From positions 32,054,001 to 32,118,000 of the forward strand of contig NC_073395.1 of assembly GCF_028641065.1 (NCBI RefSeq): DNA of 64,000 nt. Reading direction: 5' to 3'. The translations under genes and the position numbers were made by a program. This DNA comes from Leucoraja erinacea. Taxonomy: Eukaryota. Below are positions 3,814-61,901 of the stretch, piece after piece (position 1 is the first letter of the stretch; each line of letters begins with the position of its first letter). The notes under the pieces are model-generated. The model made no database searches. It saw only the letters and a program-made list of their open reading frames with translations, and was not told where the DNA came from.

Positions 3814-4067
3814 GTTTGTTCTGTTCTGTTACTGTCATCAGTCCTTCTCCCAAATGTGTTCAAAATAGATTAGTACTGATTAATCAGTCAGGCGACAGAT
3901 TTAGATGATTATCATCAGGAGATTTCCTTACTCCATTTAACATAGTACTATCAGACCTCATGGAGCCTAGTCAATGCTAAAATATCCAAGGATACCCTCC
4001 TGAATGGCTACTATTATCGTGCCCACTCTGGTAGGCCTATTCGGCCAGTGAGCAGGACACGAATCTT

Positions 4068-18915: not shown

Positions 18916-19542
18916 CAGGATCTGTCCTGGTCCCTCAATACCTCCAAACTGATCAAAAAGGCGCAGCAGCGCCTTTACTTCCTGAGGAGGCTCAAGAAAG
19001 CTCACCTGTCCCCCCAGATCCTGACCAACTTTTACCACTGTACCATCGAAAGCATCCTGACCACCTGCTTCACGGTATGGTACACCAGTTGCACCGTAGC
19101 TGACAAGAAGGCACTACAACGGGTGGTGAAAACCGCTCAGTACATCATCGGTGCCCTGCTCCCTGCCATGGATGCCCTCCACCGAAAACGGTGTCTGAGA
19201 CGGGCCGGGAAGATCATCAAGGACTCCACCCACCCTAACCATGGACTGTTTGCCCTCCTCCCATCAGGGAGGCGGTACAGGAGCCTCAGGTCTCGTACAA
19301 GTAGGATGAGGAACAGCTTCTTCAACAACACTATCACATTGCTGAACTCGGAGTCCCGCCGATAGATTTCTCCAGTCTCTCCGTCCACATTGTTTGCTTA
19401 TTCTGTATTTTCTATTTCTATAATTGCACTATTACTACGAACAGACGCTAAACTGCATTTCATTGTACCCATACTTGTATCTGTGCAATGACAATAAAGT
19501 TGAATTGATTGAAATTGAAATTGAAATTGAATTGAAATTGAA
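18916..19542 (+). mobile_element. Rex1/Babar LINE 3' fragment
   Basis: QDLSWS..KKAQQRLYFLRRLKK...LPSGRRYRSLRSRTSRMRNSFF; (AATTGA)n tail. Confidence 0.88.
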
Positions 19543-29409: not shown

Positions 29410-29488
29410 GAAAAAGAAACTGTCATCGTATCAAAAAACTAAAGAAGAATATGAGAAAAGACAAGCAGAATATATACAGAAAAAAGAA
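29410..29488 (+). CDS. CCDC59: CCDC59 exon 3
   Basis: ttttag acceptor; KKKLSSYQKTKEEYEKRQAEYIQKKE; GTAAGT donor, phase 0. Confidence 0.92.
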
Positions 29489-31233: not shown

Positions 31234-31395
31234 GCGGCAGAAAAAAGACAAAAGGATAAAGAAGAGGCACAGAGGAAATACAAAGAACAAAAACTGGAGA
31301 GATATAAAATGCTCTGCAAGAAAACAAGAACAGGCCAGCCAAACCTGAACCTGCAGATGGAATACTTGCTTAAAAAAATCCAAGATAAGACATGA
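31234..31395 (+). CDS. CCDC59: CCDC59 exon 4 (terminal)
   Basis: [53 protein letters not shown], with the [18 protein letters not shown] signature. Spliced CDS is 702 nt = 233 aa. Confidence 0.95.
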
Positions 31396-34990: not shown

Positions 34991-35579
34991 AGAATCCATT
35001 TGGCCCACAATGTCCATACTAGCCCTCTGGAAACCAGTCCATTCGGCCCACAACACCCATACTAGCGCTCCAGACCTTTTAAATGGCATGCTTATATTGA
35101 ACTCAATGTGTTAATTTTATTGGGTCATTGTGTCAATGCAAGCCAAAAAAGATAGGCTTTCTTTATAGTTAGACGTAATGAAACAGAAAACACTGGATAA
35201 ACTCAACAGGTCTGGGTACATCGTGGGAAGTGAAACAAAGCTGATTGTTTCTCTTCCCACAGATGTGACCTGATCTGCCAAGTATCACACTTTTCTGTTT
35301 TATTTTAGACATCCAGCATCTGGAATTTCTGCAGTGACTAGAATAACAGTTGGTTTTTTTAGACCCGTCTGAAGAAGGGTCTCGATCTGAAACATTACCA
35401 ATTCCTTTTCCCCAGAGATGTTGCCTGACCCACCGAATGTTAGCATTTTGTGTCTAGTCGATTTTTTTAGATCTAGGATCTCCAATTAATATCAAGAAAG
35501 CTTCAAAGAAGAGTTGCACAGCAATTAGCATTGTTATTCCAAAGTTTCATGCTGATGAAATATTAAACATGGTAGCGTG

Positions 35580-36380
35580 GATGGTGGTTGGGGACACAAC
35601 AGATGAGGACGAGTCGGAGTATAGAAGTGAGATCGACCGACTGACCAAATGGTGCCAGCACAACAACCTGGCTCTCAACATCAGTAACACCAAGGAACTG
35701 ATTATGGACTTCAGTCGGGGAAGGATGAGGACACACAATCCTGTTCACATCAATGGGACGACGGTGGAGAGGGTCAATAACTTCAAATTCCTGGGCGTGC
35801 ATATATCCGAAGATCTTTCCTGGATCCAGCACACCAATGCAATTATAAAGAAGGCACATCAGCAACTCTACTTCCTGAGAAGATTACGGAGATTCGGCAT
35901 GTCAAAGAGGATTCTCCTAAACTTCTACAGGTACACGGTAGAGAGCATTCTGACTGGTTGCAGCATCGCCTGGTTCGGCAACTTGAACGTCCAGGAGCGA
36001 AAAAGACTACAAAAAGTTGTGACCACTGCCCAGTCCATCACCGGCTTTGACCTCCCCACCGTCGAAGGGATCTATCATAGTTGCTGCCTCAAAAAGGCAG
36101 CCAAAATCATCAAAGACCCACTCCATCCTGGCCACACACTTATTTCACCCTTGCCATCAGGAAGAAAGTACAGGAGCCTGAAAACTGTAACGTCCAGGTT
36201 CAGGAACAGTTTCTTCCCTACAGCCATCAGGCTATTAAACACAACAACGAATAAGCTCTAAGCTTTGAACTGCAAAAGACTATTATTATTGCACTATATT
36301 TGTTATTTATTGAACTTTTTCTTTTTTTTCTCTTCCCCCGTTATGTACTATGTCTACATATTCACATATTCTGTTATGCT
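35580..36380 (+). mobile_element. Rex1/Babar LINE 3' fragment (ORF 35569-36261)
   Basis: WCQHNNLALNISNTKEL, FKFLGVHISEDLSW and LPSGRKYRSLKTVTSRFRNSFFP motifs. Confidence 0.9.
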
Positions 36381-36897: not shown

Positions 36898-39039
36898 AGT
36901 GATTTACTTGAGGATACATCAGTTTGGAATTGCATCTTTCTGAAAAAAGTCAGTGTTTTTTTCTGAGCAATTATGATATTTTTCGATGTTTAACTAAGGA
37001 AAGAACAAAGACTTAATTTATTACTGGCAATTAAATTTGGGTACTCAATTCCCACTTGGGAAGTCGATCTGGGTCAGCCTTTCAGCGCATTGCTGAAGGA
37101 GAATACTGTAGTGTCATCTCTCATGTAAGATGCGTTCAGGTGGGTCATGATCCCATGACATCATTCAAAGATGAAAAAGGATGTCTAATATTTATTTCCA
37201 TAAAAGTGTAATGGCCACTTGTCTGTACTACTTTATCAATCGTGGTTTGTACAGCTGCCTGATATGACTGACAGTAAAACAGTTTGAAGCAAATATTATT
37301 CAGCTGTTTCCAAGCATCTTCATATGTCATGAAGAAATGTGAAGCACTTTTGTAAATACCACTCCTTTGGTTGGATGTGAAATGAACTTTAATTCATGGT
37401 TAAGTAAACCGGAAATTCCATAGCATGTCTCCTATTCATAGAATATTAATTTCACGTCATTTAGTCCTATCAGATAGTAGATTGTATATATGATATGCCC
37501 ACTGAAGTAACATAGATGTACAATTTAGAAATCAATGGGAAAATTGCTCTGCCCCGAGAGAACAGCAAGCTGTATGTGGAGTCGCAGCTGTTCCTATTAG
37601 TAAAGTTGAATAAACATTGAATAACAATGACACTGTATAACACTTAAAACAGATGCTTTAAAAATCTGCAAATTGTAGGCAATAAATAATTTGTTGTAAT
37701 GTGATGATTGTAAGATAAGTCTTTGATCGGTCAAAATGTTATCCCATCACATTCCATGTTGTCTTTATTCTTCATAAATTGTCTTTACCATAAGAGTTAT
37801 AGAACTATTGTTCACAAAAGGAGGTCATTGTGTCCATGCAGTCCAAAAAAGCAAGGCTTTCTCTGTAATTGCACGTAATAAAAACAGAAAACGCTGGACA
37901 AACTCAACAGATCTGGTCCCATCTTGGGAAGTGAAACAAAGCAGTTTGTTCTCTTCTCACAGATGTGGCCTGACCTGCGGAGTGTCACATTTTCTGTATT
38001 ATTTTAGATATCCAGCATCTGCAATTTCTGTTTTTATTTTCACATACTAATTGCATATCCTAGCACTAGTTTTGTTGGTTATAACACCTCAAATGTTCTC
38101 CCAAATATATTCCTTAAATGTAATTATGTTATCCGTCTCTTTCAGGCAGTGAGTTCCAGAACTCTACCACCGGGTTTAAACTGCTAATACATTCTAATCC
38201 TTTGTGGAAATAAGTGAGAAAACTTTAATGAACCCGAAGGATATAAGACCTATGTGGAATCACACTTGTTCATATCAGTAAAATTGAATAAACATCGAGT
38301 AAAAATTACCTCTCTGATTCGCTCTAATCTCTCTATTAATTTCCTTAAATATGTTCCCTCTTTTAATGATATCTACTAAAGAAAATAGTTCCTTCCGGTT
38401 ACTGATCGCTACCAAGAAAAATGAATCATTTTATTTGTCCATTCTGGTCCTCATCTTTTTAACCACTTCAATTCAAATACCCCTCAGCTTCTTATGCTCC
38501 AATGAAAATAAAAATCCTGTCCAGCCAGTTTTTCTCCTACAACTAAATTTCAACTGTATTTTTTTTTGCAATCCTCCTCTGCCACCCCCATTCTGCTCTC
38601 GATGCGATGACCAGAATCTAATAGATTTGATTTGTAACATTTTGTACAAAACCTCCCTGACCAATTATCTTATCCACCTTATCTACACTTAACTTATTTC
38701 AGCAGATACATGATAATGATAAAAGGAATAATATTTAGTGCAAGCTAAAGTCTGATTAGAGTCTGAGGGTCTCCAATGAGGTATAGTAGCTCAGGACCAA
38801 AGTTCCTCTAGTATCTTTGCTCAGGACCACTCTCTGGTTGTTGATAGGATAGTAAAGTTGCCTGATAACAGCAGGGAAGAAACTTATCAGGCAAACTCTT
38901 TCCAGTATTCTGCAATGTAGTGTGCATTTCATTGACTTTTTGTTTTCCCCAAATGAAGTTAGAATGCTGCATGTGTTTAATTATTTGAAACATATTTAAG
39001 TATTTTGATTTTTAAAAATATTTAGTCGAGAAGATGCCA

Positions 39040-39350
39040 ACAAGATATGGACGCTCAGCAGCTCAAAACGTTGCAAGGAACAAACGATGAGAGAAGAAAG
39101 AAGGTGGGAGAGAATACCAGAGCGGACACTTGTCATGGAAACTGCAAACAAGCCTAGAGCCACATCACTGACGCTAAACCACAGAGACGTGGGCTAACGG
39201 GAGGGGCAGAACTCTACATTCACTGTTGCCTGGAGACCAACAATGTTTTTTTTCGGAAAGCTCCGACGAATTCCCGATCTTCGCAGAGCTCTTGAGAACG
39301 TACGAGTGCTACAGGAACGGTAACAGTTATCTTAGATAGTTATTGAGGTG
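39040..39350 (+). promoter_or_regulatory. Candidate promoter and non-coding first exon with two RFX X-boxes
   Basis: Local CpG enrichment. CTTGTCATGGAAAC (39129-39142) and GTTGCCTGGAGAC (39225-39237), with a GC-box-like GGGAGGGGC between them. Donor-like sites at 39320 (CG/GTAAC) and 39348 (GAG/GTGAA). Confidence 0.55.
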
Positions 39351-41699
39351 AATATTGTGTTTAATGCGAATTACTTTCATGAGAGCTTTCTCTGCGTGAG
39401 AGTTAGAATGGAAAACAGTTGGGAGGGGACATTCTCAACTTCATAAAGAGGTCGATGGCGCAGTCTTCTACCACCTCCCCATGGATCAGCAATGAATTAC
39501 ACCAGCTCTCAAATTATACATATAATTTGCATATCAAGTCAGGCCGAGTTTACTGTTGTATGCACATGTGTACAGTAAGTACAGGTACAATAAAATCCCG
39601 CTTGTAGCAACATCGCAGTCACATAGACTCCGACAATATACAAAACATAAATTATACATAAATTACACAGCACAGAGAAAAGGAAAAAGACCATGCCAAA
39701 AAAAAATACATTGCTGACAATTGCTATTCCCACCAAGTGTCATTCAGTCCATTTACACAGTGGGATTACAATCTTTTATCTTCCTATCTGATCCAACATA
39801 TGGTTATTAGGCTAGCCCAATGTCACCCAGGTATGTGTAAGAAGGAACTGCAGATGCTGGTTTAAACTGAAAATAGACACAAAAAGCTGGAGTAAGACAG
39901 CAGGACAGATAGCATCTCTGGAGAGAAGGAATGGGTGATGTTTCGGGGTCAAGACCCTTCTTCAGACCCAGGTATTCCCAGTTTCTCCATCTATCCCTCT
40001 TTCACCACCTCTGCAACTTAAATCTATTTTCTCTCTTTCTCAATCCTGTCACTGGCCTGAAACATGGTTTGCTTTACAGTTTTCACAGATGCCCCCGGAC
40101 CAGCTGAGTGTGCAGCAGCATTTTCTGTTTTTATTTTAAACGTAACATCTGTTTTTTCTCACATGTTCAAGTGAAGAGTAATTCATCAAGCTCCTGACTT
40201 CTGCTTTGTATATGGTGGTTAGGCTTCAGGATGTTAGAACATGAGACAATTGCATGCCATATGCCATATATATTGAAAGATATAGAAGATTGGTTAGTTG
40301 ACAGGAAATACAGCAACAAATACAGGGAAAAAAGGGATCAAGTTTGGGTGGCGCAGCAAAGATAGTGATTGGACACTAACTGCTTGCAATGTATATTAAT
40401 AAGTTTGACTCGGGGTCTGAATGCAATGAATTATTGCCAATGAAGTAAACCAAGGGGAAGAAATGAGCTATGAGACTAAGACAAAGAGGCTGAAAAAGGG
40501 CAAAGTGAAGCTGAATGATGGAATGGAATGTTGAGCAATATGACGTTTTTTGGTTGGAAAGCAGATAAGTGCAAAGCTGGGGAATGTTAGTAATATTGAG
40601 TGCTTCACTTGGACCGTAGAAAGTTAACATGCTGATTCAACAAACAATTTGAAACGCAGAGGAACAAGGAAATCTTAGTGAAATTGGCTAGTAGATCCAA
40701 GATTTCATTTTTTTCGGAAAAATCAAACAAATACACTGCTGAGCATGTGAAAGTTAGCTTAACCTGGAGTGAAATTGGATCGTGGGGCCAAACATCGTTT
40801 TCATAAAAATCCAAAAAATACATTGTGGAGCATCTGAAAGTCAGTTTAACCTCAAGTAGAGCATTAATGTGAAAATAAAAACAAACCATAGATGTCATAA
40901 ATCTGAAAATACTGAAGCACTCAGCAGATCAAGCAGCATTTGCGGAAACAGAAACAGAGTAAATGATTTAATGACAAATGTCTCACAAATACTTCCCCAG
41001 GTTTTGGACTTCAACTATTTTCTAATTCGGATAGGAATTAAACATTGTTGTTTTAAATATATCTGTTTTTATAAGTGAAGCAGTGATTTACTTTCTTCAA
41101 TCTAGTATACTGCATTTGGTAGTACTGACGTTTTCGACATGGGAATGCTTTGTGAAGCATCTGTGATAAGTCCACAGGAATGATTCTGAGCTTACAGTTG
41201 CCTGCTATTTTTATTCCCCAAACCCCATCCACCTCACAATGTCTGCGGCCTCAACACTGTTACGAGGCCCGAAACATGCTTGAGAAACAATGTTTCATCT
41301 TCCACCTGGATATGTTGCAGCCTTCCAGACTCAATTTTCATCAGAACTAGAGAAGAAAGCAAACAAGTTAACCTACACTAACAGAGAAGTTGAAGGAAGG
41401 ATGGATACATGGAATACTGGTGACCCCATGGTAGTTTTCACTTATCTGTAACTATTGAACTGGAGTTGCAAATAGATCACCGCTTCAGTGTGCGAGGACA
41501 ACACTTAGTTGAGAAAAATAATATTTGAAGATCAAAACTTGACAAAAAAAACTCCTGATCTAATGGGCAGTATGATCGTTGTCATCTCATGAGCTTCGTA
41601 GACCTGTATTATTTATAGAAGGCGCTTTAAGGTACTGGAGATATATCATTAACACTATCTCTGAAAAAATGTACTGATTTCACTGGAAAGATAAGTGAA

Positions 41700-44871: not shown

Positions 44872-45895
44872 GATGACTAGTGGGGTGCCTCAGGGATCTG
44901 TGTTGGGTCCTTTGTTGTTTGTCATGTACATCAATGATCTGGATGAAGGTGTGGTAAATTGGATTAGTAAGTATGCAGATGATACCAAGATAGGGGGTGT
45001 TGTGGATAATGAAGAGGATTTCCAAAGTCTACAGAGTGATTTAGGCCATTTGGAAAAATGGCTGAAAGATGGCAGATGGAGTTTAATGCTGATAAATGTG
45101 AGGTGCTACACCTTGGCAGGACAAATCAAAATAGGACGTACATGGTAAATGGTAGGGAATTGAAGAATACAGTTGAACAGAGGGACCTGGGTATAACCGT
45201 GCATAGTTCCTTGAAGGTGGAATCTCATATAGATAGGGTGGTAAAGAAAGCTTTTGGTATGCTAGCCTTTATAAATCAGAGCATTGAGTATAGAAGCTGG
45301 AATGTAATGTTAAAATTGTACAAGGCATTGGTGAGACCAAATCTGGAGTATGGTGTACAATTTTGGTCGCCAAAGAGGAAGGATGTCAACAAAATAGAGA
45401 GAGTACAGAGGAGATTTACTAGAATGTTGCCTGGGTTTCAACAACTAAGTTACAGAGATAGGTTGAATAAGTTAGGTCTTTATTCTCTGGAGCGCAGAAG
45501 GTTAAGGGGGACCTGATAGAGGTCTTTAAAATGATGAGAGGGATAGACAGAGTTGATGTGGACAAGCTTTTCCCTTTGAGAATAGCGAAGATTCAAACAA
45601 GAGGACATGACTTCAGAATTAAGGGACAGAAGTTTAGGGGTAATATGAGGGGAACTTCTTTACGCAGAGAGTGGCGGCGGTGTGGAATGAGCTCCCAGTG
45701 GAAGTGGTGGAGGCAGGTTCATTGGTATCATTTAAAAATAAATTGGATAGGCATATGGATGAGAAGGGAATGGAGGGTTATGATACGAGTGCAGGCAGGT
45801 GGGACTAAGGGGGAAAAAATTTGTTCGGCATGGACTTGTAGGGCCGAGATGGCCTGTTTCCGTGCTGTAATTGTTATATGGTTATATGGTTATAT
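44872..45895 (+). mobile_element. 5'-truncated, frameshifted CR1 LINE
   Basis: TSGVPQGSVLGP, KYADDTK and LVRPNLEYGVQFWSP in three successive frames; (GGTTATAT)n tail. Confidence 0.92.
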
Positions 45896-46447
45896 GATTG
45901 GTGAAAACAGGGCCGCGACGTGAACGCTCTTTCCTTGATCCCAACCGTTGTATTGTAATCCATGAATGAGCGGGTCGAGTCCAGTTTACTTGGTTTATAA
46001 AAGCTTAGACATTCAGGATAGCTTGTATTTGATTTTAAACACAAGAGTCTTGCAAATGATAAATGATTGTTGTTATTAAGAGGAATGACTGGTCCATTGC
46101 TATCCTCACCTTGGTGCTAGTTTAAATGCAAGTATTTAGTATTGTAATTGGATTGAGTTATCAATCCCGAGTGATTAAAACAATTAGTTAAGGTGGAAGG
46201 TTAATACTGTACCATTAACTCTATTTCTTATTACAATTGCTGCTTGAGGTGCTGAGCATTCCCAACATTTTCTGATTTAATTTTGTGTTTGCAGCGTTAA
46301 CATTATCTTTGTTTTGTATGGGAAACAGTTTGGTTACTTACGAAGTGAGATGATCACTTTTTTATCATATTTCTTTACGAGGATTTTTTTTGTTGTTGCT
46401 TTACTTGCAGATGTCGCTCGCAAATAATTTGATTTAAATTTGATTAA

Positions 46448-46577
46448 ATGCCTCTGCGCACAAGAATAACATGTTACACAGCCTGGGCAAATGCACGATG
46501 TTCTTCACTGAGTCGTCAGCTCAACAATATATTTATAGAGCTGTTCACAGACAATCATTTGAAAAAATTGTTAGAAA
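46448..46577 (+). CDS. Uncharacterised tandem CH-domain protein, coding exon 1
   Basis: Exon opens at 46411 after ttacttgcag. MPLRTRITCYTAWANARCSSLSRQLNNIFIELFTDNHLKKLLE resembles the start of a CH domain (FTxWxNxxL...). A/GTAAG donor, phase 1. Confidence 0.82.
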
Positions 46578-47407
46578 GTAAGTTCAAATTCTAAAAAAAA
46601 TGATATTTGATTGTAGTACATATATGCATCATTAACTTTTCTATAATTGAATGGACTTAACCCTTTCATTACTCAGATATTTGTGTGGAATATGTTAAGC
46701 CTATTATAACATTAAACTCCGCAGAAAGGGGACTACCAACCAAGTCTATTTTTGTTGTTTTACCTCCCGTTACTGATGGTCCTGATACCATTTATTTAAT
46801 TATTTATTTTTAAAATTACTATTGCACCTCATGCTTGTAATAGGTCCAGAAACATAGACCACGTCTTTTGGAATTGGTCTGCTTTACCTGCTAAGAGGAA
46901 TCTCATCTCTTCCAGATGTAATGTTTCAAACATATTTGATATCCACATTTTTATTGTTGGTGTGGGCGCATTTTTCCAGAATTTGTGTATAAGCCGTCCA
47001 TTTTAATAACGTAATAGCAGCCTTTTTTGAACAATCAATTGTAATGGCAGGTTTCCATGTTACTAGAGTGACATTTAAACAGGCAGAATATCTTATTAAC
47101 TGGCAGATAGCTAACTATTAACTATATAGTGTTTTACAATATTGCTGTACGCACTTTATGTAGAAAAATATTATACATGTGGTGTATTAAATGTTTCTGT
47201 AAACCTTTCTGTATACTTGCATAATAGCTAATAAATTGGGAATGTAAATTGCACTATTTATTTGTTGTATATTGCAGACTTTACAATTAAGCAAGTTGAA
47301 CTGAGATCTATTTATTTTATTCACAATGAAAGTCCACTTTTAATGGGGTTTTTTTGCTCTGTTGTTTGAAAGTTACTAAGTTTTTTCCCGATGTGTTTTT
47401 TGGTTAG

Positions 47408-47577
47408 GTTTTACTGGAAAGGCACCCAGAAATATGAACAGCATGGCTCAACGTCTATCTAAACAGAATCTTATTCCACGATTTGAGTTGTTTTTAGAAG
47501 AACTACAAAAAGCTGGCATCATACCTAAGGATAGTAAAATCGACTGTGGCCTGATTGCCAAGAAAAATATTAAATCT
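47408..47577 (+). CDS. Tandem CH-domain protein, coding exon 2
   Basis: ttag acceptor, phase 1; SFTGKAPRNMNSMAQRLSKQNLIPRFELFLEELQKAGIIPKDSKIDCGLIAKKNIKS; GTACGT donor, phase 0. Confidence 0.82.
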
Positions 47578-47809
47578 GTACGTAAAAGGGTCTCTTTTAT
47601 TGTTAACTTCCACTTGAATAACACCAGATGGGTTATCTTAATAGCTTATTTTTGACTAATTTAACGAGCAGACACGTTTACGTTTCAATGCCGTGCATTT
47701 TTAAAAAAATCGTGATTAAGCGGTAACAGTCAGGTGAGAAGATTCATGTGCATCACATGTCCCCAGTGAGGAGCTGAATTCACAGGGACTATGGATCAAG
47801 GAAGTAGGA

Positions 47810-48550
47810 CAACATCAGGAGCACCTCTTCAACTGCATTCAGTGCTCCCGATGTGGCCTCTGTTATATTGGTGAGACAGAGCGTAGACGACGAACATTTC
47901 ATCAAACATTTGCACTCGGTCTGCCAAGGCCTACGGAACTCCCGGTTGCTAACCATTTTAACTCCCCTTCCCATTCCCATACCAACCTTTCTGTCCTGGG
48001 CATCCTCCATTGCCACAGTGAGGTCATGCACAAACTGGTGGAGCAGCACCTCACATTCTGTTTTGGTAGCTCACAACCCAGTGGAAAGTTGAATTCTCCA
48101 GTTTTATGTGAACAACTCTCTCCTCCTCCCCTTCCTTTCTCCCCTTTTCCCCTTTTATCTCCCTCTCTTCCCTGTGCCCTACCTGGATGCACCCACCCAT
48201 TTCTCCCTTTCCCCTTCACCCCCTTCCCTTCCACCTGTATTCCTTCCTCTTGATTTACATTTCACACCCCTTCTGTTCTCCTTAACTCAGACATTATGTT
48301 TTCTCATCTTTGTCCTTTGTCCAAATGTCTGCCAATCACCCCCCCCCCCCCCACACACCCCTCACCCCACCTTTATCCACCTATTGCTTGGCTTTTGCCC
48401 CCTCCACCTCTCTTCCACCTTTCTCCCACCTTTCTCCCCTGACTACAATCACTGAAGAAGGTTCACAACCCAAAGCATCGCCTCTCCATGTTTTCCAGAG
48501 ATCCTGCCTGACATGCAGAGTTACTCCAGCACTTTCTGTCTTTTGTATCT
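47810..48550 (+). mobile_element. Penelope-like element remnant
   Basis: NCIQCSRCGLCYIGET (YIG half of GIY-YIG), HKLVEQHLTFCFGSSQPSG, a pyrimidine-rich tract and a terminal repeat with CTGAAGAAGG. Confidence 0.8.
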
Positions 48551-50196
48551 GAAATTTATCATTGTCCATATCATATCCTATTGTCATATCACCATATGTA
48601 CTGTAGTTACAAACACTGCATTGTAAAATTTATTTTGGAGCCCGACCCAAAATGTTGTCTGCCCATTTCCCTCCACAGATGCTGCCTAACCCACTGAGTT
48701 CCTGCAGCAGTTTGTTTTTTACTCAAAACCCCAGCATCTATACACTCTTATGTAACCCTCTCTAAAATTTAATTTTAATGTCTTACAGTAAAGCTTCCCC
48801 ATCTTGTGCCCCATGGCTACTCTTCTATCATAATGAATTATTATAATGGTATGTGGATTAAATGACGTTATCTGTATGCTTAAATTCAAATTCACTCATT
48901 TTTTCTTTCCCTGTTTGGAAATACAATAAAAGTACTGTCACTTGCATGCGAAGCTGATCTGAGAACATACGACATTCAAAACAATGTATTGCTGACTTCT
49001 GAGTGCACTTACATCAGGGGGTGTAGAGCGCCCCAAGAAAAATACACATTGTCATTGTTAAAACTCCAGTATCCTCATCCAACATCCACAGACATGCTGT
49101 TGGATTGCATCGCGACTTGGTTGGGTTGTCCAAGACCACATGAAATCGTGGATGTTGCCCAGCCCATCACACAGACCAGACTCCCCACATTCACTACATC
49201 TACATTTCACGCTGCCTTGGGAAAGCAGCCAACATAATCAAAAATGTTGCCTACCCTGGGCATCTTCTCTTTGCTCCAGTTGGAAAGAAGGTACAGAAGC
49301 TTGAAAGTGTGTACCACCAGACACAGGAACAGCTTTGTCCTTTCTGTTAACAGGCTTCTGAACGGAACCTTCCATAAGCTAGGGTACTGTCCAATTATCC
49401 TCTTATAGCTGACATTGGGCTTTGTCTCTTTAACTATTGTGCTACAATGCTAAGACCTATATTCTGCATCCTTTGCTCTACCCCATTGTACTTGAGTTTG
49501 ACCTGATCACAGTATTATCTGATCTGATTTGGGCAGCATGCAAAACAAACGTTTCACTGTATCTAATAATAAATCTAAAGCATATGTTCAAACATTTTCA
49601 TGATCTCACCTTTTCTATTTCCATGATTAATTCCAACATTCACCTGATAAGTCTACATTCCTCTTTTGTAGCTTGAAATCTCTTGCTCCAATAGAGCCTT
49701 AAGATAACTAGGCCTTAACTTTGGGAACTATTTCCCAAATCAGCTCCAACTGTCTCTTCCACTTGGATATTTCTTAAATCCTACACCCTGTTTAAAATTG
49801 CTCTATTTTTGCTCATGTGGCAAGTTGTTTTAATTTAGTATAATTCAGAGAGACAGCAGGGAAACAGGCCCTTTGGTCCATTTATTCCATGCCAACATTG
49901 ATCACCTGTGCATACTCTATGTTACCCCATTAATCCATTCACTCCTTTCATACTGGGGGGCAATGTACAGAGGCCAATTAATCTATAAACCTGCACATCT
50001 TTGGGATGTGGGTGGAAACCGAAGCAAACGGAAGAAACCCTCAGGGAGAAACAGGAAGAATCTGGAAACTGATTGGACCTGAGTCTTTGGTGCTATGAGG
50101 CAGTTTTGATACGTTTTACTCCATCAAAACTGCCATTTTAAAACAAGTTGTTCACTCTTGTCCAAAATACACTTCAATTTCTCCTAAATGCAAAAT

Positions 50197-50640
50197 CAAG
50201 TCAAGTCAAGTCACATTTATTTATATAGCACATTTAAAAAAACAACTCTCGTTGGCCAAAGTGCTTTACATTTGTTATAAGAATAGTATAAACAAACAAA
50301 CTACATAAATATATACACATAGCCCTCGCTCAGTGGACGTCAGGAAAGGCATGGGAGTATAGATAAGATTTTATTCTTGACTTAAAGGAGTTGATGGAGG
50401 GGGCAGTTCTGATGGGAAAGGAGATGCTGTTCCACAGTCTAGGTGCTGCAACCGCAAAGGCGCGGTCGCCCCTAAGCTTATGCCTAGACCGTGGGATATT
50501 CAGCAGCCCCAAGTCGGCCGATCTGTGGGACCTGGAGGTGGAGTGGTGGGTGAGAAGACTTTTAATGTAGGAGGGGGCAAGCCCATTGAGGACTTTGTAG
50601 ACATAGAGGAAGGTCTTAAAATGTATACGGAACCGCACAG
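50197..50640 (-). mobile_element. L2-clade LINE 3' end
   Basis: RIHFKTFLYVYKVLNGLAPSY...GDRAFAVAAPRLWNS...SFKSR; AATAAA followed by a (TTGAC)n tail. Confidence 0.85.
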
Positions 50641-51562
50641 ACTTTAAACAAATCCCAATGAGCTATTGCAGTTTATAAACTTCATGCTAAGAGAAAGTAA
50701 ATACTCCCCCACCAAACACCCCTTCTCGTGGTAAACACTTCCCCAGCAAACACCCCTTCTCTTGGTCTCATCCACCTTTTCAAATTTTTCTGCTGAAGAA
50801 CAGAGTTGTAATCTTGCATCTAAGATGAAATGTCACCTATACATGTTCTGCAGAGATGCGGTTTGACCCGCTGAATTAGTCCAGCACTTGGTGTCTTTTC
50901 TTAGACCATTTGCCAGGAATCGATGACTTACTCCCGGTCTTGTTTTGTGGATTCTCAGATGATGGTTAATGAAGCAAATATTGGAAATGCTATCTCTTCC
51001 ACAGATGGGGTAATCTATGAGGACGGTGTGCTTCTGCTATTTACACAGTAAGGCTCTGTGTAAGCTGCAGAAGCAAAGTGATTTACACAGAGCTTCCCTG
51101 TGCCCTGACGTTTGACCATGGAGTTCACAATAACATCCCAACTGCCCTTTCTTGACATTGCCTAATCCTGAGCCAGAGGTTCTCAAGAATCAGTGAGGAC
51201 ATTGTTTTATTTTCAAGGAGAATTTGAGCACTTTCTTGAAGCTTTCTCTCTATCCACCTGGTAATCTGTTCTCGAGATGGACCTTAGAATAAATTGATTG
51301 CCATAAGAGTCCAGGAGCTAATTGAGGGTAACCAATGCATCAATGATCGGGAAGTTGACCTGGGAGAGACAGTGATATTGGTTTGTTTGGTTTTGCAGAG
51401 ATTCTGAGGTTTTTCTGGAGATGGTGTTGGTGTTATTTTTGCAAACCAATTGCTCCCATTTAAAAAAAAAATAAGACTACGTTTATGCTCAGCTATAAAC
51501 AATAAATCTTGGAGAGAGATGGGAAAGACAAATATGCTGATAGTATTTAAAAATATCTAGTA

Positions 51563-52409
51563 CGAGACTAAGTGCAGACCCGTTGGGTCTGTTCCCCCAA
51601 CGTGTGGTTGTGGGGGGGGGGGGGGGGGGAGGCGGCATGCAGTGTCACACACACTAACTATCCCCCCTCCGCACTCACGCTAATTAACCCCCGATATTAT
51701 ATTAAGATTATTAATTTGCTCCTTTTACTCCATAACCACCTTATCTACTGACGCATAGCCCCCAACTTGCAGTCACATCTAGAGAGGGGGTGGAGGGGTG
51801 GGGGCGGGGGTAGAGAGTGAGGGCAGAGAGAGAAGGGGCAGAGACAGAGAGAGAGGGGAGGAGAGAGAGAGAGAGGGGGGCAGAGAGGGGGGGGGAGGGG
51901 GGGTGCTGAGAGGGGAGGGGAAGAGGTTGGGAGCAGGGAGGGGAAGGGGGTAGAGGGGTGTGTGGAGGGGAGGGGGGTTTAGGGGAGGGAGGACGGTGGG
52001 GGAGGGGATGGAGGGGAGGAGGGGGAGAAAAAAAGAGGGGAGAGAGAGAGAGAGGGGTGGGGGGGAGAGGGGGGAGGGGGGGGAGGGAGAGGGGGGAGGG
52101 GTGAGGGGAGAGGGGAGACGGGGGGGAGGGGGAGGGGGGAGGGGGGGGAGGGGGGGGGGGGGGAGAGGGGGGGAGGGGGGGAGGGAGAGAGGGAGGAGAA
52201 AGGGAGGGAGGGGGGGGGAGGGAGAGGAGGAGAGGGAGGGGGGGGGGGGGTAGAGGAGAGATGAGGGGGGAGAGGAGAGGGGGAGAGAGGTGAGGGGAGA
52301 TAGAGGAGAGGGGGGAGGAGAGGAGAGGGGAGGGGGAGGGGGGAGGGCGGGGGGGGAGAGAGGGAGGGGGGGAGAGGGGGGGGGGCGGAGAGAGAAGGAG
52401 AGAAAAAAA

Positions 52410-52457
<48 letters not shown>

Positions 52458-52913
52458 GAGAGAGAGAAGAGATAGGGATAGGGAGAGAGAGAGAGAATGT
52501 CTTTTTACTCAACCCGAACCCCCCAAACAACCATTAGCAGGCAGTGCTTTTTTCCTCAAACTAACCATAACCAAACCAAATTAAGGGTACTTACTCACAG
52601 TTGTGTAGACATTTGTTCAGTCATTCAGAGCTCAGACCTCCATGTTGTAGAGACTGATTGGGGCACACCACTTCCTGGTTTTATAGTCCCTCCCCCTCCC
52701 ACCAGCAGGAGCAGCAGGGAGAATGGGGAATTTTGTAAAAGCATTAATATCTCTGTCATTTTTCATCGACGGGAAAAATCCTCGGCACACATGCGGAGGA
52801 GGGGGGCTCTGAGTGAGGTGGCCAAAAATGACGGCCGTAGGTGGCGGCGTTCTCTCGGAAATTGCAGCACAGAAGGCCAAAACCGGTCAAGAACAGAATT
52901 TTAGTACTATAGA
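51563..52913 (-). mobile_element. Non-autonomous Helitron-like element with an internal G/GA-rich tract
   Basis: Same terminal hairpin (CAGACCC-GTT-GGGTCTG, 51575-51591) and flanking sequence as 583-700; minus-strand start TCTATAGTACTAAAA. Confidence 0.6.
51781..52497. repeat. ~700-bp polypurine G/GA low-complexity tract
   Basis: Almost exclusively G and A, with many G runs, ending in (GA)n. Confidence 0.95.
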
Positions 52914-54224
52914 AGATTATAAGTGTTAACTCATTACAAAGATGAAGTAAAGGTGCTGAGAAAGGCAAAGGGAAGTAAGCGCCTATGTGGTCTGAGTAGA
53001 TTTATTTTGATCAAACTGGCTATTTATTTTAAGTGTCTGCAGTGTTTGTAGCATCACTCCAACTGAGGGGAATATGATTTCTCAAAAACAATCCCTTAGG
53101 ATGTTTTCTGTTTTGTTGTCCCATTTGTCAAAAATCAAATGAATTCCCTCAGGTAACTTGAAACTACAGCAGGCCCCATTTAACCACGGTACATCACGTT
53201 TGACATCCTCACATCAAACAGCATTTCATTTATAACAATTGTGAGAACTATCCTTAAACTGCCCTTAAATATTGTCTATTTCATTGTTTCCTGATTTCAT
53301 ATTATTACTGCATTTTTTATGTATATAACACAATGAAAGCTTTCTGAAACAGGGTATGTTCATTATATCATCTGAAATTATATATGAAGTATTTCTATTA
53401 ATGATTTTCAGAATTGTCCCTTCAAACAAAAGGGGATAATGAAAAAGTTAATTAGCATTAACTCCCTATTTTTTTTAACGATTCTTGTATTTTTAAAATC
53501 TTCTGTAAAGTTAAAAAAATAGGTTTATGAAACTTTCAGCATAACAATACCTTGTTTTTATTTGTCCATAACATTTTTCATTTCTGACTGAATAACCAAA
53601 ATGATATTTGCAAACAAGCCCCGCCGCTCTTATCCAGCTTTTTCGCCCTTTCTGCAATCATTCTGAAGAAAAGTCCTGACCCAAATGGTCACCTATTAAT
53701 TTAATCCCACAAATGCTGCCTAACATGGAGTTAGTCCAAAACTTTGTGTTTTGCTCACGATTCCAGCTTCTGCATCTCACTGGCATATGCAGTGTTGCTT
53801 TCAATGACCTACTTTACTCATGTGTGGTCCAGGAATGAAAAACAACTCTTCCTAAACTTTGTTGCAATTTGAAAACAAAGGATTTACAATAGTCTATACA
53901 TGTGTCCTTGAGGTCATGATTGCAATAAGGTTTGAATTCTTTGTGTGTGATAAAATAAGTGACTAGTTTTCAGAGATTCCTACTTTTATAGCCTTCAACT
54001 TTGGAAATGTAATGAACTAGGATATTTTTTCCTTCAGAAGTCATATTTTAGTATTGATAATGTATTGATAGCAAATTAATAAAATAATAAATTGTATTTA
54101 ATAGTTTATCATTTTTCTCCAGCGAATCCCCTAAAAATAGTATTGCTTACTGATTATTAACAATGAATGCTTGCATTGCACAATGACTTAAGCTGTGAGG
54201 AGTGCATTTTGATTTGTTCACCAG

Positions 54225-54335
54225 ATAAGTGACCTACTATGGAAGTTAATAGTGTATGACATTCGGTTCACCTGGGAACGGTCAAGTCAACTGCTGCTCA
54301 ATAATGAGAAACTGGTCTGCGCCATTTGTTTCAAG
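54225..54335 (+). CDS. Tandem CH-domain protein, coding exon 3
   Basis: ccag acceptor; ISDLLWKLIVYDIRFTWERSSQLLLNNEKLVCAICFK, where LLWKLI resembles the final CH helix (ILGLIWxLI); AAG/GTAGG donor. Confidence 0.85.
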
Positions 54336-54813
54336 GTAGGAGGGAGAATATTGAAGCACTACAAGTGCTTACGGCTGTTTATTCCTTATATTATTACCAC
54401 ATGAAAAGGAAATAATCCCTTTACATTTCAAATCTCAAATCATTATATTAATTTCTGTTGAATTTTAAAATTGGGTGAAATGAGACCAGATTTTGACAGA
54501 TGCTTTAGATTTGTAACTTCTTTGGGATATAATGTTGTAGTATTTATGTCTTATCATTTTCTTCTTGATGGAAACATTGCCTTTGCTTTTAAATTTCTCT
54601 GCTCGAATGAAGTGCCCATCAATATTAAAATATCAGACTTACAAATTGTACCAAATCATTTGTGGAACCAATATATTAAAAATGTAATGTTTAGATATTT
54701 CTTATAAGAAAATAAATATACAAATAATTTGAAACAAGTTGCTGAAGATATACCATTGACTTTTATGGTAAATGTAGAATAATATAAGGAAGATTTGTTA
54801 TTTTTTGATTCAG

Positions 54814-54967
54814 TGGACACTACAGGTTAAATCATCAGTGCAAAAGCAAGCAAAAGCTCCTCCATCATTTTTTGCTGGTCTTGCGTTCCCATTAGATGAA
54901 ACAAATGGATCTTCTGTCTCTACCCAGATTGAATCGTATTATTTGCAAAATTCGGAACCATTTCCAG
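54814..54967 (+). CDS. Tandem CH-domain protein, coding exon 4 (linker)
   Basis: ttcag acceptor, phase 0; WTLQVKSSVQKQAKAPPSFFAGLAFPLDETNGSSVSTQIESYYLQNSEPFP; CAG/GTAAT donor, phase 1. Confidence 0.8.
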
Positions 54968-57733
54968 GTAATAACAATATTATTCCATTTTAAGCATTTC
55001 TTCATTTTTCTTCATTCATTGATAAATTAGAAATCGTCAGGAATTAAAATATTAGAATTAATAATACTTTTAGTGACAGAAGGAAAGTTTACTTGAATTG
55101 TAATGATCATTGGCTGGCATAGTTTATTTAGATCTTTTGAGGATTCTATTTCTATTTCCAACTGAAAATTAACCTGCCTTTCAGACCTTTTATAAAAAGG
55201 ATTAATTAAAATGTGTCATCGCTTAGGAATTTATACATGGTATGAAAGACAAAGATAAAAGAACACCCAAAGTAGGGTCAATTCTTTATTAGAATTATTA
55301 GGAGAAAGAGGATACAATTTGGTTTTATGGTGCAGAGTGGGTGGGGAGCGTAAGGGGTATGTTGGTTACAGTGAGGCCAGGCTTGTCTTGGGAATGTAAA
55401 CATCCCATTGATGAGTGTGACCTGTGGTTCTAAACTCGCTAGCTGTTGGGAACATCCTCCTGAATAGTCCAGATGAAAGGATTAAATTAGATGGAGAAAA
55501 GATGTTGAATATGAAACATTCTCAGTTTTTCTCTCTACAAATGTAATCTGACTTGCTGAGTGTATCCAACATTTCCTCTTTTTAATTCTGATTTTCCATT
55601 TCCACAATATGTTACTTATACCCTTTTGTTCCCATTTAGAAAGCTTGTTTCACATTTAAAGATCCCTAATACAGGTATAAATGTTAATTTAACAAACATT
55701 ATCTGCATTGCAATAGTTGCATAGTATGCTGAAACATCAATGCACTGAACAATTTTTAGAACATTTGCAATTAACATACATTTTTCAGTGTTCTCCTTGT
55801 GAACTTATTGTCCATTGTATGTGAAATTTAGTGATAAACACTTTTAAATGTCATCCATGCCATCATTCAAATAGTATCGAGCTGCCAACAAGAACATTGC
55901 CCCGCACATTAGCTTGAGAAAATATTTTTTAAACGTTATCGGTCAAAAAAGTGCATGCAGATACAAAATACCTTTATATTGATAACAGAGTGCTGTTTAT
56001 CTTCAATCCAAATGTGTTTTATTTTAATGCTTGAAATTACATAGATTTGCAAATACTTGTTGAGACTGTTTTGATTAGATTAATCTGGGTCCCCGTATAA
56101 TTTATTAATGAATAAAAGTTCAGCCTAGCAGCTTCCACAAATAAGTATCTCTTTACCTGCAGTATTTTTCAGATACTTCAACATAACAGATGTGAGCATT
56201 CGCACAAAAAAGATGAATAATTCTTTGTGCTACTGATCTCCACTAATGTACCATAGAGGAAAATAAATATGAGTACAGTGTTGTAAAGTGTAAAAATGTT
56301 TGTTTTGAATGGATTTTTTGTTATTCATTAATGAAATGTGTTTGTCACTGGCAATACCAGCATTTATGTTCCATCCGCAAATGACCCTAGAATGAGAAGA
56401 CAGTTGAGAATTAATCATACTATTTGATTGGGAGGTATACAGTATATGAGCCAGACTGTGCAGGGACTGCAGATTACATTCCCTGAAGTACATTAGTGAA
56501 CGAGACAACAATTTTAATTTGTTTTTATTCTTACTGCCGAAGAGAATTGAACTTTATGTTAATTATTGCAGTGTGGCTGTTGATGGGGTTCTAGAGAATG
56601 TGTCAACTTATATGCACGTATCAGTTTAGTTCTCAAAGGCACATTCCACTCCGACTAGTTTGACTGTCCTCCTGATCAAATTTTATCTCTGTATGTCTTG
56701 TTGTCACCCTTTCCAAGCTAACAATGATTTATTCTACATTTACCTTGATCTTTGTCCCCTTTGATCAGCTTACCCTTATCCTGAGAGTCAGATGTCTCCT
56801 TCTACCCTGACTGCCAGCCTGAAGAAGTGTCTCGATCCGAAATGTCACCCACGCCCATCTAACCAGAGATGCTGCCTGTCCCACTGAGTTACTCCAGCAT
56901 TTTGTGTCTATCTTCAGTGTAAACCAGCATCTGCAGGTCTTTCCTACACACTTCCACTCTGATCCATCTGTCCTCACTTTTGCAGTGAACCTCAACTAAG
57001 CTCAAAAAACAGTGTTTTATCTTTTGACCAAGTCCCTTATAAACTTCCAAGCTCAACAATGTTTTTAACAATTTCAGATAATGAATTTTTCCATCAATTT
57101 CAGTTTTCATTTAACACTACTTTCCTTTTGCAGTTTCAGGTAATGATGCTACTTCTCCCATTTACTCTTTCTCCAGCCCAATCTTTTGCTTTTCTTTAAC
57201 ATGTCCCATTGCACTACTCATTTAATCTCTCCTGCTTTTCATCTTATCTCAGATCTTTCTTTTTATTCTCACCTCCTCTACCCAACTTCTGCTTTTCTCG
57301 GATCTGTTTAACTTTGAGCCATATTGTACGGAAACAGGCCCTTCAGCCCAACTCATACATGCCGGCCAAGATACCCCATTATACTAGTCCCATTTGCCAA
57401 TGTTTGGTCCAGATCCCTCTAAACATTTCCTAGCCATATACCTATCCAAATATCTTTTAAATGCTATTATACTTACCTCAACTACCTCCTCCGACACTTG
57501 TTTCCGATCTTGACCTGAAATATTAATTATGTTTCTTTCTCTATTGATAGTGCACAACCAGCTGTGCATTTATACAATTTCTATTGTTGTTTTGCATGAT
57601 CCTTTTGAAGCAGTGATTTCTGCCATCTAACAAAAATGTCTATGAATTTCCTTTCTCTTAAAAAAGTATGAATTACTGTTTTATATCAATTTACATTAAT
57701 TGTATAATTAAATTAACAATTCATGTGTCTAAG

Positions 57734-57840
57734 GTCATGAGCTAGCTAAAGCCTTTAACAAGAAAATTCCTAAAGAGGGCTGGAATAACTATCCTTCTGC
57801 CGTTGAATGCATTCTGGATCTCGTTAATACCCATTTGCAG
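57734..57840 (+). CDS. Tandem CH-domain protein, coding exon 5
   Basis: taag acceptor, phase 1; GHELAKAFNKKIPKEGWNNYPSAVECILDLVNTHLQ; CAG/GTACT donor, phase 0. Confidence 0.8.
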
Positions 57841-58483
57841 GTACTTCTTTATTCAACACAGTGATGTATTTTCATATGGTGATGAATGCAATGTGAGATA
57901 TAATGCTGCATTGAATGGATACTTATAACTACAATGCTAAATGAATGAGATTGTTTGAACATGCTGTCCAATTTGATTAAAAAGGAAGTTGAACCCAACT
58001 GGATGTTAACCAGTCATCGGAATTCTCTTTCAATAGTTCTTGGTAGTACTAGTTGATCCAAAACATTTTAACTGATCCACAAGTTAACGTTTATGTAGTT
58101 GGTTGGCTTGTTGCTTTTTTTTAGTGTAGCTGTAAGGTAATCGAGTTTCACAGTACCTTAATTGGTACAGGTGACAATAAACAGACCTTTGAACCTGTGA
58201 ACAAAGGCACTTAATGGTATAGAGTTATTATTCATCAATTTAAGCTCCATTGTAAAACAGCGGAAAGCAACATTGATTTTTATTTTTCTGGAACCAAGGA
58301 CCGTCCCAATTTGTTGTCCTCAGCTCGTCATCCATGATGATACTCATTTGTGCAAGAGGTTAATTGCCACCACAAGACTCTGGTTGCATTTTCTTTCTGT
58401 AATTAATTCGGTGACTTGTAGCAGCCACTTGAACAATATCTGCACAAAGAATATTGATATCCACTCTTCTATCCATAATGTAG

Positions 58484-58611
58484 ATAGCAGCCAAAGGCCG
58501 TAAACTGTATGTAAAAGATATAGGTGACTTGGCAGATAGTCATGTCTGGTGCTATTTGGTGAACTCCTTCATGCCTGGCACGTTCATCGTGGAGGTACTT
58601 CCGTACGATAG
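58484..58611 (+). CDS. Tandem CH-domain protein, coding exon 6
   Basis: tgtag acceptor; IAAKGRKLYVKDIGDLADSHVWCYLVNSFMPGTFIVEVLPYD resembles the CH core (VxxFxxxxxDGxxxCxLxxxxxP); AG/GTATG donor, phase 2. Confidence 0.82.
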
Positions 58612-58700
58612 GTATGACTCTTTTTAACCATAATTTACAGCTTGGTTTATTACTTCTCTGTGTCCATAATTTAATGCCACAGATTGGATTAATTTTGTAG

Positions 58701-58782
58701 GTGGACAACGAATCTAGCTTTAAAAACAATGGAAGCAATTGTTTGCATATCAACTTCATTAACTTCACAAGATCTTCTTGAG
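58701..58782 (+). CDS. Tandem CH-domain protein, coding exon 7
   Basis: ttttgtag acceptor after an 89-nt intron, phase 2; RWTTNLALKTMEAIVCISTSLTSQDLLE; GAG/GTAAT donor. Confidence 0.82.
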
Positions 58783-58875
58783 GTAATAATATAAAAATTG
58801 TAATAGGATTTTATTTTGGTTTTATCATAATTGATGCATTTTCTAATCAACTTTTCATCATCTTTCTTTTTAAAG

Positions 58876-58965
58876 GCAGATCCGAAGGCTCTCTGTGCCT
58901 ATTTGTGTGTTATCTTTATGTGTGGTTACAAGTTCAGGCAATCCATAGCAGTTGTAAACTACATT
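58876..58965 (+). CDS. Tandem CH-domain protein, coding exon 8
   Basis: Polypyrimidine tract + aag acceptor; ADPKALCAYLCVIFMCGYKFRQSIAVVNYI resembles a CH2 end (PDxKxxxxYL); GTGAGT donor, phase 0. Confidence 0.85.
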
Positions 58966-60531
58966 GTGAGTGGAATTATTCAAATTATTGCACAGTGTGT
59001 CTAATTGAAGAGCTATTTAGAATGTTTTTCTTTTTCTTTCATTTTCTTTCTAATTATTTTATTCCCAGTCTCCTTATTCTGAGTCTCAACATCTACTCAT
59101 AACAAAAGCATTCCAAGCCCTGAAGACCTGTTGTATGCAGACTATCTCTTCTAAATTTCTCTAAACCCACCATTTATAATGTTCATCCTGACCTTTGTAA
59201 ACATTGGAAGCCTTCTTTACCAATCTGTCCAACCAATACTTTAAAAAAAGTTTTGTTGAGTCATTCTTAGCTTTGTTTCATTTTGAGCTTTTCCTCATAA
59301 TAGTAAACTCCAAATTATAGTATTTAAATCCATTTTCACTGTACCCCTTGCATGGGCCTAATCCTTAGAATATTAAGGTGCAATTACTTGCATCTTGATA
59401 GTTGCATAAATGCAAAGTTTTATTCTTAATTTATATTCAATGTATTTATAGGATCCTTTTGAAATATTTATGATTATTTCAGTATGTAGTGCTCATCTAA
59501 ATATCACTGCACCCACGTCCCAAATTAATTTTCTGCTTAGTACAAAGCTCAAGTAATTTGAAGAAATGAGCTAAGCAAATTCACACGGAATGACCTGTTA
59601 AGATATCCTGGGAGACGAGGGAAGTGTGGGGAGGCAAGAACAAGGAAGTTTTCTTCAAAACCTGCACTGGTCCTTCGAACTTTTAAGGATGCAGCAGGAG
59701 CAATTAAGATGTGGCCATTTTCCAGAAGCCTCTTTAAGTTTGGTTAACCAATTTGGTTGCCCTGAGTCATTGGTACTCATAGGACAGTGGCTCCTATAAC
59801 TGCTGACGGATCCTGATTAGCATTATAACACAGTGCTGATTGTGGTTCCTTCACTTAAAGGCACATACATCAAATATGTTTTCTCATTTTAAGCCACCTT
59901 CGTAATTTTTTTCTAATTTTTGGTTGATCATTTATTTTAAAAACAAAATAGACGATATGAACTGCTCCAATAATGACTATTTGGGGAAACTTACCTGAAT
60001 CTCCTGTCATTGCTTCCTGATTAATTTTACTGAATGTATGTCTCGTTGTCACCTTCCTCTCAGCCAACAATGAACTACACTTCCTTGAGCATCGTCTGCT
60101 TTGATCTGTCGTTTTCACACCTTACCCTTCCATATCTCTAGTCTCCCCTGACTCTTGGTCTGAAGAATGGTCTCGACCCAAAACGTCACCGATTTCTTCT
60201 CTCCAGAGATGCTGCCTGTCCCGCTGAGTTACTCCAGCATTTTTGAGGCATTTGAGTGTTTGACAGCACTGGGCCTCTACTCACTGGAGTTTAGAAGGAT
60301 GAGGGGGTACCTCATTGAAACTTACCATATATTAAAATACCTGGATAGAGTGGATGTGGAGAGGATGTTTCCACTAGTGGGAGAGCTCATAGCCTCAGAA
60401 TTAAAGGATGTTCCTTTAAGGAAGAGGGAGAAATTATTTAAGAAAGAACTGTAGATGCTGGAAAATTCGACGGTAGACATAAAAGCTGGAGAAATTCTGC
60501 AGGTGAGGCAGCATCTATGGAGCGAAGGAAT

Positions 60532-60566
60532 GGGTGACGTTTCGGGTCGAGACCCTTCTTCAGGCT
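60532..60566 (-). ncRNA. Minimal hammerhead ribozyme motif in a Penelope-type terminal repeat (best-preserved copy)
   Basis: Minus strand reads AGC-CUGAAGA-A-GGGU(CUCG)ACCC-GAAAC-GUC-ACCC: core boxes, stem II and a GUC triplet. Helix I is very short. Confidence 0.6.
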
Positions 60567-60769
60567 GAATTCTTGTTCATTTTTGACAAGTACCATGAAT
60601 AAATTTTAGCCTTAGGCTGGGCTGCGAACACTGACAGATGCATAGGTTTCCCAATGCACAGAGGCGTATGCTTACTTGCTAGATGGAAACTTTTAACTTC
60701 CTTTTTACAGAGGTAAATGTTCTTTTAATTAAGTTAATAGGATAATGATAAACTTGGGTGTGAACACCA

Positions 60770-61710
60770 GGTGGTGTAGGAACAAAATGTTTCTGGTAGA
60801 TGCTGGTTTACAAAGAAAGATAAAAACTGCTGGAGTAATTTGGTGGTTCAGGCAGCATCTTTGGAAAACTTGGATAGGTGACATTTCGGGTTGGGACCCT
60901 TCTTCAGACAGATTGTGTGGGAGGGGGACAGAAAGCCAGAAGAGAGGAGGGGCAGGATGCAGTAGCTAACCTCATCTACTGTTTCTGGTCTTTCCGATGT
61001 GGCCTCCTAAACATTAGCAATTCCAATAGTAGACTTGGCGAGCACTTCACTGAACACATGTGCTCAGTCCTCCAAGGCCTGCTGGATTTCCATTTTAATT
61101 CCCATTCCCATTCCCACACTGACCTTTCAGTCCTAAGCCTTCTCCATTGCCAGAGTGAGGCCACACACAAACTAGTGCAACACCAACGTGTATTCTGCTT
61201 AGGTAGCTTACAGCCCAACAGTATAATCACTGAATTCTCCAAATTTAGGTAAGCACAAATCTCCCCACCTTCTTCCCTCAATCCACCCCTTTATTCCCCC
61301 CCCTCCCCCTCCCCTCCCGTCTGTCCAGTACCCCACCTGGGCTCTCATCTATTTCTTCCCTCCCTTTCCCTTCCACCTACATTCCTTCCTCCAGCTTCAT
61401 CATTCGCAACTCTTTAATACTTTTGTCTTCCACCTTCTGTCTTTTCATCTCTGACCTTTGTCCAACCTTCAGCCTATTCAACCCCCTCCCCCCCTCCCCT
61501 CAGCTGTATCCACCTACTACCTGTCAGGCATTGTCCTGCCCCTCCAGTCTTCTAGCTTTCTCCCCCCCCCCCCCCCCCCCCCTCTCCCTCACCACATTGA
61601 AAACCAGTCTGAAGAAGTGTTGCGACCTGAAATATGACCTATCCATGTTCTCTGAAGATGTTGCCAGACCTGACGAGTTGCACCAGCAATTTGTAACTTT
61701 CTTTGTCTTC
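60770..61710 (+). mobile_element. Penelope-like element with an inverted terminal repeat at the 5' end
   Basis: Minus-orientation repeat 60770-60960, then a GIY-YIG remnant (RLGEHFTEHMCSV..HFNSHSHSH..LQPNS), then a plus-orientation repeat at ~61605-61710. Confidence 0.78.
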
Positions 61711-61774
61711 TGGAATAGAGTGCGCTGTCATTGAACTGTCTGTGGAATCGTGTATCTTTTTTCATTTTTGTTAG

Positions 61775-61901
61775 AAAGAGTTGCAACTTTTAAAGAGCAA
61801 GTTAGATGCGCAACTGCAAACCTTCCCCCTGGAAGAACTGGAGCCACATCAATCTGCCCAAAAGAGTGACTTGGAAAAGAAGCTAGAAGTGTTCAAGAAT
61901 G
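61775..61901 (+). CDS. Tandem CH-domain protein, coding exon 9 (coiled coil; gene continues beyond the window)
   Basis: tttttgttag acceptor, phase 0; KELQLLKSKLDAQLQTFPLEELEPHQSAQKSDLEKKLEVFKN; G/GTAAT donor, phase 1. Confidence 0.8.

Follow-up and report, generated by a model that had tools for sequence, protein, structure and literature searches.

The question raised by this locus is what a gene lying between CCDC59 and PPFIA2 encodes in the little skate, Leucoraja erinacea. In human, we take PPFIA2 to be the next gene after CCDC59, with no such gene between them. In the window, that is, the whole stretch of 64,000 nucleotides that was analysed, the initial annotation had described nine exons of an unrecognised gene encoding tandem calponin-homology (CH) domains and a coiled coil.

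A spliced gene beside CCDC59

The gene order was found to be CCDC59, the skate gene and a PPFIA2-like gene, in agreement with the neighbours first proposed. For the upstream rRNA_processing gene, the name CCDC59 is that proposed in the initial annotation. Downstream, a SAM-domain scan yielded one liprin exon only (E 3.9e-4), which was then checked by a PDB sequence search. This plus-strand SAM exon was located 287 kb beyond the end of the gene, and its best PDB match was liprin-alpha-2 (E 7.3e-16). The end of the exon (G000:C19:32482419-32482529; L103:4419-4529) near the donor seemed to depart from the usual reading.

The nine exons carried GT at all nine donors and AG at all eight internal acceptors, and with compatible phases they were joined into 366 codons with zero stops, as had been claimed. 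Among 20,000 random chains built from AG-started segments of matching lengths, none was free of stops. The joined peptide was identical at every residue to residues 1-366 of RefSeq XP_055506740.1, the 1033-aa little skate 'uncharacterized protein LOC129706453', which belongs to the same protein cluster as the thorny skate orthologue (1033 aa; found with exon 2 as the query), identical at 355 of the 366 positions. Both proposed ends of the gene were revised. Position 46411 was the splice acceptor of the first coding exon, and the ATG there opened an 8-codon uORF only; the long frame began at the ATG at 46448, preceded by an in-frame stop, and this start position was constant across the protein family, in 37 of the 46 members checked. 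When XP_055506740.1 was mapped on the window and 200 kb of downstream DNA, the whole gene comprised 26 coding exons. Thus, it did not end at 61901; 17 exons lay past the window end, the last ending at G000:C19:32195486 and being followed by TGA. The features, with predicted domains, were as follows:

29410-29489 and 31237-31396, plus strand: last two coding exons of the CCDC59-type gene; Pfam rRNA_processing on the last (also placed at 31237-31386), AATAAA shortly after the stop
46411..46577, plus strand: exon 1, first coding (coding 46448-46577); 37-nt leader with the uORF; residues 1-43, CH1 helix A
47408..47577, plus strand: exon 2; residues 44-100, CH1 core, with the region matching filamin ABS2'
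54225..54335, plus strand: exon 3; residues 101-137, final CH1 helix including W106; joined to exon 4 by a contig of run X1
54814..54967, plus strand: exon 4; residues 138-189, CH1-CH2 linker, low confidence, likely disordered
57734..57840, plus strand: exon 5; residues 190-224, end of the linker and CH2 helix A
58484..58611, plus strand: exon 6; residues 225-267, CH2 core
58701..58782, plus strand: exon 7; residues 268-294, CH2
58876..58965, plus strand: exon 8; residues 295-324, final CH2 helix into the first long helix
61775..61901, plus strand: exon 9; residues 325-366, helical hairpin
Beyond the window to G000:C19:32195486, plus strand: 17 coding exons; third helix, middle domain (403-518), ankyrin repeats (523-990)

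Four sequencing runs presumed to be RNA (X1, X2, X9 and X10) were compared with positions 54150-59050. In X1, a single 351-nt contig matched exon 3 at 54225-54333 and, immediately adjoining in the contig, exon 4 at 54812-54934; the intron was absent. Contigs of X1 and X2 stopped matching at the donor of exon 8 (58965) but extended further. These two runs belonged to the same study and carried a species label different from that of the best-matching DNA runs; of the three exon base differences listed for them, two were synonymous. Coverage by X9 and X10 over this region was confined to repeats, and no exon joint was seen among the joints listed, which were crowded by repeat joints. Furthermore, a Logan record of the same cluster contained a 2,856-base contig encoding 707 residues from exon 9 through the C-terminus, a stretch that occupies ~80 kb in the genome. 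The exon 3/4 contig, and the 2,856-base contig compared with its genomic span, thus supported splicing. These results indicated that the gene is real and spliced. In addition, when the skate genome assembly (G000) was searched with the N-terminal half, the 12 matches obtained were all at this locus; therefore, the gene appears to be single-copy there.

An artefact or repeat-derived ORF was rejected as an explanation of the exons, and so was a pseudogene. Between CCDC59 and exon 1, a plus-strand segment at 39026-39320 was bounded by AG and GT, and the CpG observed/expected ratio was 0.86 at 38900-39400; no long conserved frame was seen in the segment, which may be either a non-coding 5' exon of the skate gene or its promoter. 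Repeats were also observed in the window. Broken LTR-retrotransposon-like ORFs with frameshifts and one duplicated piece occupied 10790-15160 on the plus strand, and we take them to be gag-, protease-, reverse transcriptase- and integrase-like. LINE reverse-transcriptase ORF fragments, presumably of CR1/L2 type, were found at 4052-5227, 7001-7904, 18817-19362, 35458-36258 and 45040-45920. Intronic SINE-like repeats, such as 56863-56950, were very abundant in the sequencing runs compared.

Domain architecture and the middle domain

From the N-terminus, the 1033-aa protein begins with CH1-CH2; three long helices come next, then a beta-rich domain without a name, and finally ~12 ankyrin repeats. 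The two CH domains and the long helices behind them had been recognised before; the supposed coiled coil, however, begins the three-helix segment and is not a long tail. Two thirds of the protein, namely the unnamed middle domain and the ankyrin array, had been left out.

The CH pair had been described as unlike spectrin/actinin and filamin sequences, which was not supported. The CH1-containing family profile matched alpha-actinin-2 (E 1.1e-6), filamin B (E 7.4e-6), dystrophin (E 2.5e-5) and also utrophin, and the modelled pair superposed on actin-binding domains (ABDs) of the actinin/filamin/dystrophin/utrophin type. In Pfam, CH1 gave no match and CH2 scored 17.7 bits, under the cut-off of 26, but a CH fold was modelled. 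In the model, an N-terminal CH1 and then CH2 were packed as a single unit, as in actinin-type tandem-CH ABDs; the pair is thus predicted to fold as a closed actinin-type ABD, with a closed packing that possibly leans on solved ABDs. The pLDDT was below 50 across linker residues 140-184. CH1 and CH2 were equally conserved (42.5% and 40.4%, respectively). The C-terminal half consisted of ankyrin repeats plus a helix, and an EF-hand match was absent from it in both Pfam and the model. The array (residues 523-990, ~12 repeats) was divided into two blocks by a helical insert. Its best PDB sequence match was ankyrin-1 (E 8.2e-58); designed ankyrins scored alike, so the match is generic.

The middle domain (~115 aa, beta-rich) was confidently modelled, and no clear structural match for it was found, the whole-domain comparison covering the beta-grasp and LysM folds. 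By sequence, hhalign aligned it with cyanobacterial and phage vWA proteins at 99.8% over 108 columns with 31% identity, and it matched positions 233-343 of PHROG 26613, a family of unknown function. This sequence evidence shows it to be homologous to the C-terminal domain of vWA proteins from bacteria and phages. In cyanobacteria, a vWA protein of ~354 aa with the domain at its C-terminus (L022-L101) was widespread. Of 80 bacterial loci, 56 had its gene directly upstream of an NAD-dependent DNA ligase; because 79 of the 80 loci were cyanobacterial, the adjacency may be inherited gene order. The metagenome protein P0105 fuses BRCT, vWA and the middle domain, and this fusion, together with the ligase adjacency, hints at a link to DNA damage or stress. 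P0080 and P0081 carry two or three tandem copies joined by low-complexity linkers, suggesting that the domain may be a stand-alone binding module. Large phages of Mycobacterium, Streptomyces, Rhizobium, Caulobacter and Synechococcus (L106-L110) encode a 330-370 aa protein ending in the domain. No common gene context was found across these five phage regions, and no function emerged from the neighbourhoods of the 80 bacterial loci and five phage regions; the label 'minor tail protein' in one phage region is the depositor's. A scan of viral contigs found nothing, and no second copy was found in G000 with P0097 as the query. Its occurrence in bacteria, large phages and animals makes the middle domain a target in its own right for structure and function work.

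Range of the family

Named vertebrate members were from skates, sharks, sturgeons, gar, coelacanth, caecilians, newt, frogs and lamprey, and named invertebrate members were from a tunicate, amphioxus, hemichordates, echinoderms, Acropora, Macrostomum, the rotifer Didymodactylos and the sponge Ephydatia; the taxonomic group names given to members are our assumption. The unicellular members, choanoflagellate UC4 and Pigoraptor chileana, both keep the entire domain order. Conservation was ~40% from unicellular holozoans to amphibians. The species was known for 15 of 81 representatives (12 named out of 20 looked up, and three from an earlier search), and further orthologues could sit inside the 50% clusters. 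No amniote, teleost, arthropod or nematode was among the named matches of the word-based searches, which are insensitive, one having missed members that another found.

A FastTree of 67 rows (38 named and 29 unnamed, with short fragments and non-family proteins excluded) roughly tracked the species tree. Six unnamed rows were vertebrate, four within amphibians and two within ray-finned fish, one of which (P0046) could be a teleost; none of the six branched at the amniote position. Collectively, these comparisons supported an ancient, patchily retained family, as had been proposed, with members from Pigoraptor to amphibians. It was likely lost in some lineages, and a loss in mammals would be consistent with the searches. 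The family is apparently missing from the usual model animals, and a cytoskeletal component of this kind would escape genetic studies of mouse, zebrafish, fly and worm. The family bears on the contents of the actin cortex of the animal ancestor, and orthologues in frog, Ciona, sea urchin and Macrostomum make it testable now.

Possible roles of the protein

We consider it probable, though by no means assured, that the protein is an actin-filament adaptor with a closed ABD, in which weak or activated binding by CH1 is combined with a helical spacer and with partners held by the ankyrin array and the middle domain. The closed CH pair would open, placing CH1 with W106 on F-actin; the three helices would serve as a short spacer, leaving the recruitment of partner proteins to the ankyrin array and middle domain. 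A single chain would thus do the job of an actinin- or spectrin-type linker plus a separate ankyrin adaptor. Binding might be weak or activation-dependent, because the N-terminal extension ahead of CH1 (ABS-N) is absent. Skate residue 1 mapped to filamin A residue 40, and ABS-N of filamin A is Leu35-Lys42 (PMC9132340). The start lies nine residues ahead of the helix-A motif; therefore, most of ABS-N is without a counterpart. According to PMC8810934, filamin A and utrophin bind actin less well once the extension is removed, and beta-III-spectrin no longer binds it at all. Nor do all CH domains bind actin; some bind tubulin or signalling proteins instead (PMC10175787).

The strongest competing explanation, which we regard as unlikely, is that the CH pair lost actin binding and became a protein-docking module, as the CH domains of parvins are, which would leave the protein acting purely as a scaffold in signalling. 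The missing extension would fit this, as would the IVDGN-type motif of ABS2, which was not conserved and was altered in animals. For 37 of the 46 members checked, spanning coral to shark, residue 10 was where the helix-A motif began, and this fixed N-terminal length suggests a conserved contact of its own; near-invariant, family-specific CH2 residues, including D266, R267 and W268, also fit this explanation. However, helix A showed no variation at T11, W13 and N15 in any of the 21 rows covering these positions. W106, which was kept in 23 of 25 rows, aligned with filamin A W142, a residue described in PMC8810934 as buried in the closed ABD and contacting actin when open. The best sequence and fold matches were actin-binding ABDs, and parvin was absent among the 42 profile matches and 50 fold rows listed.

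Some axonemal and spindle proteins use CH domains on microtubules, and a ciliary or microtubule-associated protein, retained where motile cilia abound, was also weighed; we regard this as quite improbable. Named members came from flagellated unicells, sponge, coral, flatworm, rotifer, echinoderms, tunicate, amphioxus and amphibians, with no named arthropod or nematode member, and two axonemal ankyrin proteins were among the fold matches. Those two, however, were generic ankyrin matches (21-25% identity), and solved structures, including axoneme maps, contained no close family member. Moreover, amniotes and teleosts possess motile cilia yet gave no named match, the CH type is actinin-like, and a literature search on ciliated epidermis across the member lineages found nothing. 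A miniature alpha-actinin relative, dimerising via its three helices or its middle domain to cross-link filaments, is very improbable. In its favour, the three helices follow CH2, the alpha-actinin-2 match weakly continues past the neck and into rod repeat 1 (E 1.3 for this second stretch), fold alignments reach residue 375, and the presumed ancestor of actinin is, according to PMC9145010, a CH protein with a single spectrin-like repeat. Against it, the extended alignments had an rmsd of 9-11 A, Pfam gave no spectrin or EF-hand match in 19 proteins scanned, and the helices, amounting to one spectrin repeat at most, were the least conserved part (26%).

Building on the actin-filament adaptor, we tentatively suggest a broader and rather doubtful history. 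The family would be a pre-animal branch of the actinin/spectrin superfamily, combining an actin-binding head with an ankyrin array, in which an undescribed fold shared with bacterial and phage vWA proteins gates actin binding as a ligand or partner sensor. It would have been kept from filastereans to frogs and independently lost in amniotes, teleosts and ecdysozoans.

Proteins that bind actin through tandem CH domains are well catalogued. Unlike alpha-actinin, beta-spectrin, dystrophin/utrophin, plectin and MACF1, the skate protein has no N-terminal extension and has a CH1-CH2 linker of ~85 residues; compared with actinin-type proteins, it has the unnamed domain and ankyrin repeats, and no spectrin-repeat rod or EF hands were detected. 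It differs from filamins in that no Ig-like repeats were detected after the ABD and ABS-N is mostly missing. Plastin/fimbrin has two ABDs of four CH domains behind EF hands, whereas the skate protein has two CH domains only (fimbrin match, E 0.25). The cyanobacterial and phage proteins share the middle domain, but there it follows vWA (once with BRCT) or stands in two to three tandem copies, whereas in skate it lies between the helices and the ankyrins. Assignment to a named family (actinin, filamin, plastin, ankyrin or tankyrase) was rejected; the Acropora member labelled 'tankyrase-2' had no PARP or SAM match. The gene had been called unrecognised. RefSeq does predict it in several species, only as 'uncharacterized', and no named, characterised orthologue was found. 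In the main text of the open-access literature, neither papers on six gene ids of the family nor a description of the tandem-CH plus ankyrin architecture was found, and the accessible part of PMC9145010, a review of the origins of spectraplakin-like proteins, mentioned no CH-ankyrin family. We therefore describe the family as predicted but uncharacterised, a variant of actinin-type ABD proteins with an unnamed domain.

The ankyrins ANK1-3 have 24 N-terminal repeats, ZU5 and death domains. The skate protein resembles them and other ankyrin-repeat adaptors in having an ankyrin array, of ~12 repeats, and in its best PDB match; in contrast, its repeats are C-terminal and in two blocks, with no ZU5 or death domain match. 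RefSeq isoform X2 (P0004) was without 15 residues at ~649-664 in the helical insert between the blocks (G000:C19:32156809-32156928), likely through an alternative acceptor.
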